Source of the DNA: a virus
Taxonomy: Duplodnaviria; Heunggongvirae; Uroviricota; Caudoviricetes
Length of the DNA stretch: 5,159 nucleotides
Strand: one strand, 5' to 3'
Virus record (IMG/VR): IMGVR_UViG_2698536403_000005
Location: 1 to 5,159 of that record
The position numbers and the translations under genes were made by a program. Of this stretch, positions 1 to 5,159 are shown piece by piece (the first letter of the stretch is position 1; every line of letters begins with the position of its first letter). The notes under the pieces were generated by a model. It had not been told where the DNA came from, did not search any database, and was given only the letters and a program-made list of their open reading frames with translations.

Positions 1-363
1 GTGGATGGTAAACCTGTCGTCCCGGGCATGAAGTTGTCGAAGGAAAAATGCGACCAGGTTAACGCCATTGAACGTGATAAGGCGCTGGCATGGGTGGAGA
101 AAAACATCAGAGTGCCACTGACCGAACCCCAGAAAGCGGGGATTGCGTCATTCTGTCCGTACAACATTGGTCCCGGTAAGTGTTTCCCGTCTACGTTTTA
201 CAGACGAATTAATGCAGGTGATCGAAAAGGTGCCTGCGAAGCGATTCGCTGGTGGATTAAGGACGGTGGCAGAGACTGCCGTATTCGTTCAAACAACTGT
301 TACGGTCAGGTATCCCGTCGTGACCAGGAGAGCGCGCTGGCGTGCTGGGGAATTGACAGATAA
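1..363 (+). CDS. R: Phage endolysin, lysozyme type (P21 R / P22 gp19-like); C-terminal 120 codons only, N-terminus lies upstream of the window
   Basis: Open frame from window edge to TAA at 361-363. Translation (…FCPYNIGPGKCFPSTFYRRINAGDRKGACEAIRWWIKDGG…CWG) follows the conserved pattern of lambdoid lysozyme-type endolysins as I recall them (…SF.YN.G.G.F..ST…RIN.GD.KGAC…R.W…GG…C.WG). Sits directly upstream of Rz/Rz1, the canonical lysis cassette order. The GTG at position 1 is a window artefact, not the real start. Confidence 0.85.
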   Translation: MDGKPVVPGMKLSKEKCDQVNAIERDKALAWVEKNIRVPLTEPQKAGIASFCPYNIGPGKCFPSTFYRRINAGDRKGACEAIRWWIKDGGRDCRIRSNNCYGQVSRRDQESALACWGIDR

Positions 364-660: not shown

Positions 661-1128
661 ATGAACCGCGTACTGTGCGTGGTCATCATTGCCCTGCTGG
701 TGGCCTGTGGTGCGCTTAGTCTGGGGCTGAATCATTACCGTGATAACGCCATAACCTACAAAGAGCAGCGCGATAAAAAAGTCAGTGAGCTGGAGCTGGC
801 AAATGCAACCATTACTGATATGCAGCAGCGCCAGCGTGATGTTGCTGCACTTGATGCCAGATACTCGAGGGAATTAGCCGATGCGAGAGCTGAAAATGAA
901 ACTCTGCGTGCTGATGTTGCCGCTGGTCGTAAGCGCCTGCGGATCAACGCCACCTGCTCCGGTACCGTGCGTGAAGCCACCGGCACCTCCGGAATGGATA
1001 ATGCAACCGGCCCCCGACTGGCAGACACCGCTGAACGGGATTATTTCACCCTCAGAGAGCGGTTGATGACAATGCAGAAGCAACTGGAAGGGGCGCAGGA
1101 CTATATCCGCACTCAGTGTATTAACTAG
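661..1128 (+). CDS. Rz: Rz i-spanin (inner-membrane spanin subunit)
   Basis: Translation MNRVLCVVIIALLVACGALSLGLNHYRDNAITYKEQRDK…RLADTAERDYFTLRERLMTMQKQLEGAQDYIRTQC is collinear with lambda Rz as I recall it (…NHYRDNAITYKAQRDK…PRLADTAERDYFTLRERLITMQKQLEG…). N-terminal TM segment followed by a coiled-coil-like periplasmic part. The ORF track's 637 start is a TTG; the ATG at 661 is preferred. Confidence 0.9.
   Translation: MNRVLCVVIIALLVACGALSLGLNHYRDNAITYKEQRDKKVSELELANATITDMQQRQRDVAALDARYSRELADARAENETLRADVAAGRKRLRINATCSGTVREATGTSGMDNATGPRLADTAERDYFTLRERLMTMQKQLEGAQDYIRTQCIN
881..1066 (+). CDS. Rz1: Rz1 o-spanin (outer-membrane lipoprotein) embedded in the +1 frame of Rz
   Basis: Translation MRELKMKLCVLMLPLVVSACGSTPPAPVPCVKPPAPPEWIMQPAPDWQTPLNGIISPSESG matches lambda Rz1 (…CVKPPPPPAWIMQPPPDWQTPLNGIISPSERG). 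Lipobox LVVSAC with Cys at ~20, proline-rich, entirely nested inside Rz — the hallmark embedded spanin architecture. Confidence 0.85.
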   Translation: MRELKMKLCVLMLPLVVSACGSTPPAPVPCVKPPAPPEWIMQPAPDWQTPLNGIISPSESG

Positions 1129-1713: not shown

Positions 1714-2046
1714 ATGAAAATGAAAAGAAATCTTCCGTTAATTATTTTGTTGTCTTCTCTGGTTATGGGCTGTACGCAACATAAAACAGATATGCCCCGA
1801 CAGTTGGTTAAGGCATTACCACAATATCCGGCCTATGCAGCGGCAAATTATATAAAGGGACGGGTTGATGTGAAGTTTGATATTGGTGCTGATGGTACTG
1901 TCACCCGAATTGAGTTTATCCGTTCAGAGCCGCACCATCTGTTTGATGAGCAGGTTGTAAAGGCGATGGCAAAATGGCGATTTGAGAAGGACAGGCCGCG
2001 TAAAGGCGTGAAGAAAACGTTTATCTTTAGTCCTTCTGCACCCTGA
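1714..2046 (+). CDS. Lipoprotein consisting essentially of a TonB C-terminal domain (TonB_C-like)
   Basis: N-terminus MKMKRNLPLIILLSSLVMGC has a signal peptide plus lipobox (Cys followed by Thr, no Asp at +2). The rest, PQYPAYAAANYIKGRVDVKFDIGADGTVTRIEFIRSEPHHLFDEQVVKAMAKWRFEKDRP, aligns closely with the E. coli TonB C-terminal domain as I recall it ([60 protein letters not shown]). No proline-rich spacer and no N-terminal ExbBD-interacting TM anchor. Start could be 1714 or 1720; stop TGA 2044-2046. Confidence 0.8.
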   Translation: MKMKRNLPLIILLSSLVMGCTQHKTDMPRQLVKALPQYPAYAAANYIKGRVDVKFDIGADGTVTRIEFIRSEPHHLFDEQVVKAMAKWRFEKDRPRKGVKKTFIFSPSAP

Positions 2047-2177: not shown

Positions 2178-2378
2178 TCATTTCTCGTTATTTGTCATGC
2201 TGGCCGGGCGCAGATGCGTTGCATCTGTTGACAGCCTTCTTCTGCAGGCTTCAATAACCCACGCTGAAAAGTTTCCTGAACCTTTCAGATCAAGAGCGAT
2301 GTTAATTTGTTCAATCATCTGGTTTGGAAATCGGATGTTGCGGGTTGTTGTTCTGCGGGTTCTGTTCTTTGATGACAT
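2178..2378 (-). CDS. Small putative DNA-binding protein (ribbon-helix-helix / Arc-MetJ-like fold suspected), 66 aa
   Basis: Minus-strand ATG (complement of 2376-2378) preceded by GGGGA at appropriate spacing. Translation MSSKNRTRRTTTRNIRFPNQMIEQINIALDLKGSGNFSAWVIEACRRRL… has a basic N-terminal tail, then a beta-strand-like IRFP segment and two helices in the pattern of RHH proteins. Family assignment is from pattern only. Confidence 0.5.
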   Translation of the reverse strand: MSSKNRTRRTTTRNIRFPNQMIEQINIALDLKGSGNFSAWVIEACRRRLSTDATHLRPASMTNNEK

Positions 2379-2539
2379 AATGTTTCCCCATATTCAGTGT
2401 TGCTGATTTGTATTATCTGAAGTTGCTTTTACGTTAATTTGACGCAGATCAATTAATACGATACCTGCGTCATAATTGATTATTTCTCGTGGTTTGATGG
2501 CGTACACACATGTTGTGATAAACCTTATATAGATGATAA

Positions 2540-2601
2540 TCATTATCATTTCGTGGGTCCTTTCCGGCGATCCGACCGGTTACGGGGCGGCGACCTCGCG
2601 G
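2540..2601 (+). other. cos: cos site core: cosQ-proximal region and cosN; 12-nt cohesive-end sequence GGGCGGCGACCT at 2585-2596
   Basis: The stretch ~2385-2630 is near-identical to the lambda right-end/left-end junction as I recall it from lambda and cosmid cos fragments (…GGTCCTTTCCGGTGATCCGACAGGTTACG|GGGCGGCGACCTCGCGGGTTTTCGCTATTTATGAAAATTTT…). Here it reads …gggtcctttccggcgatccgaccggttacg|gggcggcgacctcgcgggttttcgctatttatgaaaattttt…. Location immediately upstream of Nu1 is canonical. Confidence 0.75.
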
Positions 2602-2635
2602 GTTTTCGCTATTTATGAAAATTTTTAGGGAAAAA

Positions 2636-2750
2636 TCAGATCCGTTCTTCTTCTTTTTAACTGATTGATTATCAATAGAATTTTAAAAATATAAAAGGAT
2701 CTGACAAAGGCTGTTTTTGTTAGAAAACGCCATTTTCAGATCCTTTCTGG
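2636..2750 (+). repeat. cosB: three R-element repeats (R3 2636-2650 tcagatccgttcttc; R2 inverted 2694-2704 aaaggatctga; R1 2736-2750 tcagatcctttctgg) with an IHF-consensus site (taactgattgatt, 2658-2670) between R3 and R2
   Basis: Three copies of TCAGATCC(G/T)TTCT, two direct and one inverted, with R3-R1 spacing of 100 bp. This mirrors the lambda cosB R3-I1-R2-R1 layout, but the repeat sequence differs from lambda's CGTTTCC(G/T)TTCT. The IHF-like site matches YAANNNNTTGATW. Confidence 0.6.
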
Positions 2751-2765
2751 TTCCCGGGGGAGTGT

Positions 2766-2855
2766 ATGAACGTCAATAAGAAAAAACTGGCCGATATTTT
2801 TGGCGTTGATGTCAGGACCATCACCGCCTGGCAGAGTCAGGGGTTCTGCTGCTGA
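2766..2855 (+). pseudogene. nu1: Terminase small subunit (Nu1) remnant: first ~26 codons intact, then out-of-frame junction and TGA stop
   Basis: ATG 2766; [26 protein letters not shown] matches lambda Nu1 N-terminus MEVNKKQLADIFGASIRTIQNWQEQG (the DNA-binding winged-HTH start); then FCC-stop at 2853-2855. Lambda Nu1 is ~181 aa, so ~155 codons are missing. Confidence 0.8.
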
Positions 2856-4449
2856 AGATTTTATGAAATCTCATGTGGAACCCACGATCAGGGATGTGCC
2901 GGTTTTACTCGATCTTGCACCGTGGTTTGGGCGTAAACATCGTGATAATACCCTCACGCTGAAACGTTTTTCATCGGGCGTGGGCTTCTGGTGCCTGGGC
3001 GGGGCTGCCGCTAAAAACTACCGTGAAAAATCCGTGGACGTGGTCTGCTATGACGAACTTTCCTCGTTCGAACCGGATGTCGAAAAAGAGGGTTCGCCAA
3101 CCCTGCTTGGGGATAAACGTATTGAGGGCTCTGTATGGCCCAAATCCATTCGCGGCTCGACGCCTAAAATCAAAGGCACCTGCCAGATCGAAAAAGCGGC
3201 CAACGAGTCGGCGCATTTCATGCGTTTTTATGTGCCCTGCCCACACTGTGGGGAGGAGCAGTATCTGAAATTTGGCGATGAATCCACGCCTTTTGGCCTT
3301 AAATGGGAGAAGGACAGCCCCGAAAGCGTTTTCTACCTCTGTGAACATCATGGCTGCGTGATCCATCAGTCTGAGCTTGACCAGAGCAACGGGCGGTGGA
3401 TCTGTGAAAACACGGGGATGTGGACCCGTGACGGTCTGACGTTTTTCAGCGCCGCGGATAATGAAATTCCGCCGCCGCGCTCCATCACGTTCCATATCTG
3501 GACGGCGTACAGTCCGTTCACCACCTGGGTACAGATAGTCTATGACTGGCTGGATGCACTGAAAGATCCCAACGGCCTGAAAACCTTTGTGAACACCACG
3601 CTGGGCGAGACCTGGGAAGAGGCCGTGGGCGAAAAACTCGATCACCAGGTACTGATGGATAAGGTCGTGCATTACACGGCGGCGGTGCCAGCCCGGGTGG
3701 TTTATCTGACGGCGGGCATTGACTCGCAGCGAAACCGTTTTGAGATGTATGTCTGGGGATGGGCACCGGGAGAGGAAGCTTTTCTGGTGGATAAAATCAT
3801 CATTATGGGCCGTCCCGATGAGGAAGAGACGCTGTTACGTGTGGATGCGGCGATCAACAAAAAATACTGCCATGCAGACGGAACCGAAATGACCATTTCC
3901 CGTGTCTGCTGGGACACCGGGGGGATCGATGGTGAAATTGTCTATCAGAGGTCAAAAAAACACGGTGTTTTCCGGGTGCTGCCGGTAAAAGGCGCATCTG
4001 TCTATGGCAAGCCGGTGATCACCATGCCGAAAACCCGCAATCAGCGGGGCGTGTATCTGTGTGAAGTGGGGACGGACACCGCAAAAGAAATTCTCTATGC
4101 CCGTATGAAAGCCGATCCCACGTCTGCGGATGAAGCCACGTCGTATGCCATCCGTTTTCCTGATGATCCGGAGATTTTTTCGCAGACAGAGGCGCAGCAA
4201 CTGGTCGCGGAAGAGCTTGTGGAGAAGTGGGAAAAAGGAAAGATGCGTCTGCTGTGGGATAACAAAAAGCGGCGTAACGAAGCGCTGGACTGCCTGGTGT
4301 ATGCCTACGCGGCATTACGTGTGTCCGTGCAACGCTGGCAGCTTGATCTGGCTGTACTGGCAAAATCCCGGGAAGAAGAGACGACCCGGCCAACCCTTAA
4401 AGAACTGGCAGCGAAGCTGTCCGGAGGAGTGAATGGTTACAGTCGCTGA
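2848..4449 (+). pseudogene. A: Terminase large subunit (gpA) homologue lacking the N-terminal ~105-110 residues
   Basis: From [40 protein letters not shown]… to the end, the translation is collinear with lambda gpA from about residue 105 (DAENFMKTHVEPTIRDIPSLLALAPWYGKKHRDNTLTMKRF…), including CPHCGEEQYLKFGD, HIWTAYSPFTTWVQIV and KKRRNEALDC. The Nu1-interaction region and the N-terminal part of the packaging ATPase are absent. The only upstream in-frame starts are TTG 2800 and ATG 2809 without a Shine-Dalgarno; ATG 2863 lies 8 nt after the Nu1-remnant stop. Confidence 0.8.
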
Positions 4450-4639
4450 ACTACAGGCGCTGCGTCAGGCGCGCCTTGATTTATTAACCGGTAAACGGGT
4501 GGTGTCTGTCCAGAAAGATGGTCGCAGAATTGAATATACGGCGGCTTCTCTGGATGAGCTTAACCGGGCGATCAATGATGCGGAGTCGGTACTGGGGACA
4601 ACCCGACGTCGCCGTCGTCCGCTGGGAGTGAGGTTATGA
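4433..4639 (+). CDS. W: gpW-like head completion protein
   Basis: MVTVAELQALRQARLDLLTGKRVVSVQKDGRRIEYTAASLDELNRAINDAE…TTRRRRRP matches lambda W (…[38 protein letters not shown]…QRRRGP). ATG 4433 preceded by GGAGGA; the start overlaps the end of A and the stop overlaps the B start (ATGA at 4636-4639), as in lambda. Confidence 0.85.
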   Translation: MVTVAELQALRQARLDLLTGKRVVSVQKDGRRIEYTAASLDELNRAINDAESVLGTTRRRRRPLGVRL

Positions 4640-4857
4640 AACGAACGCCTGTCCTGATTGATGTGAACGGCGTTCCGCTTCGTGAGAGTCTCAGCTACAA
4701 CGGGGGCGGCGCAGGATTTGGCGGGCAAATGGCGGAGTGGTTGCCACCGGCGCAGAGTGCCGATGCGGCCCTGCTATGCGCGGGTTTTCTTTTGCGCGCT
4801 CGGGCGCGAGATGGGGGCAGCAAGTCTTTCGGTACCACAACAGCAGGTACAGCTTGA
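4636..4857 (+). pseudogene. B: Portal protein (gpB) remnant: ~47 N-terminal codons homologous to portal, then frameshifted junk to stop
   Basis: MKRTPVLIDVNGVPLRESLSYNGGGAGFGGQMAEWLPPAQSADAALL matches lambda B N-terminus (…SLREYAGYHGGGSGFGGQLRSWNPPSESVDAALL…); after ~4773 the frame no longer resembles portal and stops at 4857. Lambda portal is ~533 aa. Confidence 0.75.
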
Positions 4858-5158
4858 TGCTCCCGGAATGCTGGCTGAAACGGACGAGTACATGGCCGGA
4901 GGTAAACGACCGGCCCGTGTTTACCGGGTGGTGAACGGTATTGCGGTACTGCCGGTGAGCGGCACGCTGGTGCACCGGCTGGGGGGGATGCGGCCATTTT
5001 CCGGAATGACTGGCTATGACGGCATTGTCGCCTGTCTTCAGCAGGCAATGGCAGATAGCCAGGTGCGGGGCATACTGCTGGACATTGACAGTCCGGGCGG
5101 GCAGGCCGCCGGCGCGTTTGACTGCGCTGACATGATTTACCGCCTCCGTCAGCAGAAG
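4775..5158 (+). pseudogene. C: Head protease/scaffold gpC homologue (peptidase S49-like) lacking first ~25 codons; runs off the window end
   Basis: In the frame starting at 4775: YARVFFCAL…RVYRVVNGIAVLPVSGTLVHRLGGMRPFSGMTGYDGIVACLQQAMADSQVRGILLDIDSPGGQAAGAFDCADMIYRLRQQK, collinear with lambda C from residue ~26 (AYARVFFCALAGQ…SYQVMNGIAVLPVSGTLVSRTRALQPYSGMTGYNGIIARLQQAASDPMVDGILLDMDTPGGMVAGAFDCADIIARVRD). This frame is not in the supplied ORF track, which appears to omit ORFs with no stop inside the window. Confidence 0.75.
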
Positions 5159-5159
5159 C

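Follow-up and report, generated by a model that had tools for sequence, protein, structure and literature searches.

Organization of the locus

The DNA analysed here (hereafter the window) is a stretch of 5,159 bp which an exact-protein look-up identified as the whole of contig CYBH01000071.1 of the Escherichia coli draft assembly GCA_001285345.1. It is the lysis-to-head-gene stretch of a lambdoid prophage, and follows the order lysis, cos, Nu1, A, W, B, C (Table 1). The contig carries no chromosomal flank; the same allele in two other draft assemblies (loci L004 and L006) is contiguous with yciEFG-trpABC.

Table 1. Features of the window, with positions counted from its first base.
Feature	Position	Strand	Remarks
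Lysozyme gene	1-363		Truncated at the edge of the contig
Rz/Rz1-type lysis genes	637-1128 and 881-1066		
TonB_C small lipoprotein-like gene	1720-2046	+	'TonB family protein' in E. coli ARS-C301
DUF3950 ylcI/ynfO-type gene	2178-2378	-	
cosN cohesive-end site (GGGCGGCGACCT)	2585-2596	+	Intact; followed by a cosB-like region up to the Nu1 start
Nu1 (terminase small subunit) remnant	2766-2855	+	Reading frame, Pfam, alignment to relatives
Deletion junction 1	2844-2845	.	765 bp gone relative to TW14425; TT microhomology, no filler
gpA (terminase large subunit) remnant	2845-4449	+	Codons 109-642, native stop
gpW head-tail joining gene	4433-4639	+	Apparently intact, 68 aa; Pfam gpW on the called gene; collinear with L001 5799-6005
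Portal gene B remnant	4636-4776	+	Codons 1-47, followed by an out-of-frame stretch that stops at 4857
Deletion junction 2	4774-4776	.	1,509 bp (3 × 503) gone; B codon 47 joined to C codon 22/23
Head protease/scaffold gene C remnant (S49 peptidase)	4775-5159	+	From codon 23; runs off the contig end

The TonB_C gene lies between the lysis genes and cos, a moron position that is occupied by bor in the DLP12 prophage of E. coli K-12. Upstream of it, the stretch 1134-1700 holds only short ORFs without Pfam matches, and its segment 1392-1570 is conserved at 94% in the prophage of E. coli TW14425 and in L004; an Rfam scan of the whole window, this stretch included, returned nothing. The best sigma-70-like match of the region (window 2707-2680; TTGTCA, a 16-nt spacer and TAAAAT, 10/12) is on the minus strand, sits between Nu1 and cos and is directed at the ylcI-type gene.

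The cohesive-end region is well preserved. Window positions 2585-2625 are identical to lambda bases 1-41, and the whole of 2575-2770, which contains cosN and the cosB-like region (2585-2766), is identical to TW14425. In lambda, Nu1 binds cosB and gpA nicks cosN (PMC2366019). Because cosN is intact in the window and the cosB-like region is the same as in TW14425, this dead element could remain a substrate for cutting and packaging in trans, given a helper phage of matching terminase specificity.

Break points of the deletion between Nu1 and A

A sequence-only reading of the window had proposed that roughly 0.75 kb were deleted internally, so that the start of Nu1 is fused out of frame to gpA. 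Alignments to intact relatives that are nearly identical to the window bear this out. We used window 2400-3400 as a megablast query against 5,426 complete E. coli genomes, for which the best match was TW14425 (100% identity). In 221 of these genomes the query, 1,001 bp long, is covered in two pieces that together span 1,766 bp, which means that they carry the undeleted version. A base-by-base comparison with TW14425 places the junction at window 2844-2845, with exactly 765 bp (3 × 255) absent. Identity of the left flank holds through window 2845 and identity of the right flank begins at window 2844; the only shared bases are TT, a 2-bp microhomology, and there is no filler or inserted DNA. The missing bases are 3447-4211 of the TW14425 prophage locus (L001), or an equivalent set given the overlap, and the flanks on either side are 100% identical over 622 bp (left) and 99.8% identical over 1,939 bp (right). 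Approximately 156 codons of Nu1 (27-182) and 108 codons of gpA (1-108) are lost, a loss that comes to 765 bp because the two genes overlap by 29 nt in the intact allele. The predicted size stands; the beginning of the gpA remnant, first put at about codon 105, is S109 (codon 109). The switch from Nu1 to gpA homology in differing frames, noticed at about 2838-2848, is also real, since the Pfam matches given below place it far beyond chance; and with the intact relatives at hand both the break points and the microhomology are now defined to the base. Given that the ends share just 2 bp, the deletion most likely arose through illegitimate recombination at the level of microhomology or through replication slippage, a mechanism that we infer from these ends.

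The same comparison bears on the possibility that nothing was deleted, and that the window shows how a functional phage whose terminase is natively compact is arranged. Beyond the open gpA frame, nothing speaks for such an arrangement, and it is contradicted by the relatives with flanks 99.8-100% identical, which have full-length genes, and by all matched phage records, in which Nu1 and A are separate genes and the DNA missing from the window is present. Furthermore, the 29-codon Nu1 stub lacks most of the DNA-binding fold, and the portal and protease genes are broken too. We consider this explanation effectively refuted, its probability being next to nil.

Domains retained by the terminase remnants

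The Nu1 frame runs from the ATG at 2766 to a TGA at 2853-2855. Its 29 codons comprise codons 1-26 of the original 182 and 2 nt of codon 27, after which the out-of-frame residues F, C and C precede the stop. The stub matches the Pfam family Phage_Nu1 (PF07471) over profile positions 1-27 of 164 (E = 9.5e-12; 45.3 bits for a cut-off of 30 bits), and is hence a recognizable member of the family, but it falls far short of a full-length protein of about 181 aa with a DNA-binding fold and a gpA-binding region. Indeed, its 29 residues lack most of the former and the whole of the latter, and such a peptide would be unable to bind cosB or gpA.

On the gpA side, the frame is open from 2800 to 4449, and the longest ORF initiated by an ATG (2863-4449) encodes 528 aa. 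This ATG is the first in the remnant and corresponds to Met115 of the 642-aa gpA. The GpA_ATPase profile (PF05876) is matched over positions 73-247 of 247 (E = 1.3e-34), with positions 1-72 missing, and the GpA_nuclease profile (PF20454) over positions 3-286 of 294 (E = 4.4e-71), so that the endonuclease domain is complete. Alignment with lambda gpA and with the intact relative shows that the remnant retains the Walker B motif CYDE (176), the GST motif RGSTPK (211), the nuclease domain and the C-terminus. The Walker A P-loop KSARVGY (residue 76 of the intact protein) is gone from the window, and a complete packaging ATPase is hence not encoded; in lambda, K76 lies in the P-loop of the packaging ATPase. 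Residues 1-108, the small-subunit-binding N-terminal segment, are deleted as well. This segment binds Nu1 in lambda, and the loss of the Nu1-binding region together with Walker A removes cos-specific recruitment. The gpA tail would thus neither be recruited by Nu1 nor hydrolyse ATP for packaging. A search of the PDB with intact gpA retrieved no solved relative, and for this reason the domain limits given here are those of Pfam and of the motif alignment; the literature that we found on lambda terminase motifs consisted of general reviews only.

The claim that the packaging motor is not intact is therefore confirmed: the Nu1-interaction region and the Walker A part of the ATPase are absent, and the nuclease domain is retained. 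As judged from the sequence, neither terminase subunit should be able to work and both are to be regarded as pseudogenes.

Translation of the truncated gpA

The deletion took with it the native gpA start and its ribosome-binding site, and the remnant has no start of its own with such a site. The 20 nt preceding the ATG at 2863 pair with the anti-Shine-Dalgarno sequence at -1.0 kcal/mol, as compared with -8.6 kcal/mol for Nu1, whose stub keeps its native, strong Shine-Dalgarno, -9.5 for W and -9.0 for B. A scan for promoters and terminators around junction 1 yielded no plus-strand promoter-like site between cos and ATG 2863, so that nothing points to the gpA remnant having gained a promoter. 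The stop of the Nu1 remnant and this ATG are separated by 7 nt (2856-2862), and not by 8 nt as first counted. With the native start and ribosome-binding site lost, and with an ATG devoid of a Shine-Dalgarno, the only route left to a truncated gpA would be a weak one, in which ribosomes on a late transcript terminate at the end of the 29-codon Nu1 stub and reinitiate. Termination-reinitiation is mechanistically possible in bacteria, and is usually inefficient without a Shine-Dalgarno.

It is through this route that gpA residues 115-642 might be produced and kept by the host, which would use them either as a domesticated nuclease or as a terminase with a dominant-negative effect on the packaging of incoming lambdoid phages. 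In favour of this, the frame of 528 codons is uninterrupted and contains the complete GpA_nuclease domain, and the Nu1 stub has a strong Shine-Dalgarno and a stop only 7 nt before ATG 2863. Yet the ATG itself has no Shine-Dalgarno (-1.0 kcal/mol), and cos-specific recruitment is gone with the Nu1-binding region and Walker A, by the established biology of lambda terminase (PMC2366019).

Compared with TW14425, the gpA remnant has a single amino-acid change (P to S), and the 1,939-bp right-flank alignment in which the remnant lies has four nucleotide differences. By this measure the deletion at junction 1 is evidently recent, and because it is recent, the fact that the frame is still open carries no weight. 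Nothing points to selection for a truncated gpA; the remnant is identical in all carriers, so that selection is unmeasurable either way from sequence.

A second deletion and the loss of head and tail genes

The portal and protease genes have been damaged in a similar manner. At junction 2, located 1.9 kb downstream of junction 1, the portal gene B is fused out of frame to the protease gene C (ORF 4636-4857), the latter being annotated as an S49 peptidase in relatives. A Pfam search with the 73-aa product of the B remnant gave no match. BLAST overlaps had suggested a 9-bp direct repeat at this junction, but a base-by-base check shows only 3 perfect bases (CTA), embedded in an imperfect short repeat. 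Like junction 1, junction 2 is absent from the 5,426 complete E. coli genomes. The lengths of the two deletions, 765 and 1,509 bp, are both divisible by three. No reading frame is restored by either, for the fused genes are in different frames, and the shared divisibility is probably a coincidence, with a chance of about 1 in 9.

The siblings of the window extend this picture. In L004 and L006, the C remnant is followed by tail-fibre fragments, a methyltransferase gene and the trp operon, and the capsid and tail genes are absent. Essential morphogenesis genes are thus inactivated: the window has broken copies of Nu1, A, B and C, and capsid and tail genes are missing in these two loci. A further sibling, L005 (GCA_001283785.1, from about 10026 onward), has the same Nu1-A junction and a different downstream deletion, which runs from within gpW into the C-terminus of the tail protein J. 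That the gpA remnant was kept where its neighbours took different further deletions (L004 versus L005) is what retention of a useful protein could produce, but deletions like the one that truncated gpA are also eroding the genes beside it. Downstream of J, L005 carries lom, tail-fibre genes and an effector gene of the SseK/NleB family, and this last gene hints that the carrier strains may be attaching/effacing E. coli.

Distribution of the junction

Carriers of junction 1 were found by exact-protein look-up: in a collection of approximately 15 billion proteins, the exact 528-aa protein occurs on five contigs. A 28-mer spanning the junction is present in four independent draft assemblies (L004-L007), which belong to two accession series and include contigs of 122 kb and 115 kb. 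The same 28-mer had zero matches in the 5,426 complete E. coli genomes and was absent from the GTDB species representatives and from metagenome contigs, and for this reason we state its prevalence only as rare.

These observations answer the concern that junction 1 could be an assembly or sequencing artefact, the real genome having intact Nu1 and A. In favour of it, the window is a short contig, its draft assembly was built from short reads, and the region is repeated among lambdoid prophages. Nevertheless, four separate assemblies show exactly this junction, which lies on the two long contigs among others, and an overlap of 2 bp is far below the k-mer of any assembler, so that a mis-join in the graph cannot create it. 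The comparison with independent assemblies, which the sequence-only reading had named as a check for this error, effectively excludes it, and we regard an artefact as extremely unlikely.

Independence of the assemblies does not extend to the events. Over 12.2 kb that take in the chromosomal yciEFG-trp flank, L004 and L006 show 99.98% identity; for L004 and L005 the figure is 99.96%, over 10 kb. With identities of 99.96-99.98%, the carriers form a near-clonal group that was sequenced independently but reflects one evolutionary event. What we found is hence an identical protein on five contigs of near-clonal strains, and not retention across diverged lineages under purifying selection. This distribution, together with the absence from 5,426 complete genomes, also weighs against a truncated gpA kept by the host.

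The 528-aa protein belongs to a cluster of 3,314 members, of which the full-length ones listed have 642 aa. Other short gpA proteins of the cluster start at Met61 and have an aberrant C-terminus (O104:H4), or start at Met85 and have a frameshifted C-terminus (Shigella). A common truncation point among the short proteins (P0009, P0008) was considered and rejected, as they both begin and end at unrelated positions. Unrelated end points of broken gpA alleles are what random decay predicts, and the lack of a common break point among truncated alleles is a further argument against a retained form.

Relation to known phages and prophages

The undeleted allele is found in the TW14425 prophage (NZ_CP127265.1) and in some 220 other complete genomes, with the same gene order and with flanks 99.8-100% identical to those of the window. 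TW14425 differs from the window in having intact Nu1 (182 aa), gpA (642 aa), W, portal B, C and D. Further downstream, however, this prophage too is defective, as a truncated capsid gene is fused to tail fragments (L001/L003, NZ_CP127265.1 1-11390). The 'intact' terminase of the TW14425-type allele is thus itself stranded in a defective prophage.

Another close counterpart is the DLP12 prophage of K-12 (nohD/aaaD/tfaD). Like the window, it has lysis genes, an opposite-strand DUF3950 gene of the ylcI type, cos, a Nu1 homologue and a gpA homologue, and its large-terminase gene aaaD has been destroyed by an internal deletion and is annotated as a pseudogene. In DLP12, however, NohD is full length, and aaaD is reduced to approximately the first 100 codons, which run into tail-fibre assembly DNA, whereas the window has lost the opposite part (the C-terminus of Nu1 and the N-terminus of gpA) and is left with W and the B and C stubs. 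The sibling loci of the window allele adjoin the trp operon and not the DLP12 site. Among phages, the likeness to lambda comprises 41 identical bases at cosN, 67-68% identity for gpA and 62% for the Nu1 stub, and the DNA is 88% identical to gene 2 of phage 21. Both lambda (Nu1/A) and phage 21 (gp1/gp2) differ from the window in possessing complete, functional subunits, the window being without 765 bp across the gene boundary.

Probable decay of a defective prophage

Taken together, these results make it very probable that the locus underwent a recent pseudogenization of both terminase genes in a DLP12-like defective lambdoid prophage of E. coli, with no function retained. A spontaneous deletion of 765 bp removed codons 27-182 of Nu1 and 1-108 of gpA. 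What is left is a Nu1 stub of 29 codons, together with a gpA tail that has no promoter, no ribosome-binding site and no P-loop. This deletion would be one step in a progressive decay, in which a second deletion of the same type broke the portal and protease genes and in which sibling copies have come to lack capsid and tail genes.

The sequence-only reading had presented the truncated gpA as either a domesticated nuclease or simply a decaying gene. Its second option is the one to be favoured, on account of the second deletion, the loss of capsid and tail genes in sibling loci, the restriction to five near-clonal contigs, the lack of a ribosome-binding site and the unrelated end points of other broken alleles; nothing that we found supports the first. 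Retention of gpA(115-642) by the host, in either of the two roles set out above, is accordingly very unlikely, and the domesticated nuclease taken by itself is just as unlikely or slightly more so. A more specific variant can be conceived because the remnant keeps the nuclease domain and the portal-binding C-terminus while lacking the ATPase P-loop: low-level, reinitiated gpA(115-642) might poison the terminase/portal complexes of superinfecting, cos-compatible lambdoid phages, and the intact cos might allow those same phages to mobilize the remnant. If true, gpA(115-642) and cos would constitute a nascent, accidental interference module; we hold this to be highly improbable, a shade below host retention in general.

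Decay of the defective prophage being the preferred reading, the locus represents the ordinary erosion of an already defective element and not a new system, and the implications are mostly limited to annotation. In the databases the 528-aa product bears the name 'terminase large subunit (Gp2) [Escherichia coli]'; it merits a flag as a pseudogene fragment, and the prophage is to be scored as packaging-dead. The locus is also a tidy example of the stepwise erosion of a prophage by deletions with short microhomologies, and a datable one, because the undeleted allele survives at 99.8-100% identity. Furthermore, the locus could be used to mark the small E. coli lineage in which it occurs.

A mosaic boundary upstream of cos

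A last observation concerns the left part of the window. Rightward of position 2224, the window is 99.8-100% identical to the element found in TW14425, L004 and L006. To the left of this position it resembles a different prophage, that of E. coli ARS-C301 (94-98%), and L004 is 87-94% identical where it matches at all. The L006 contig begins exactly at the base equivalent to window 2224. This suggests either a recombination between resident lambdoid prophages that followed the deletions, or a repeat boundary in the assemblies.
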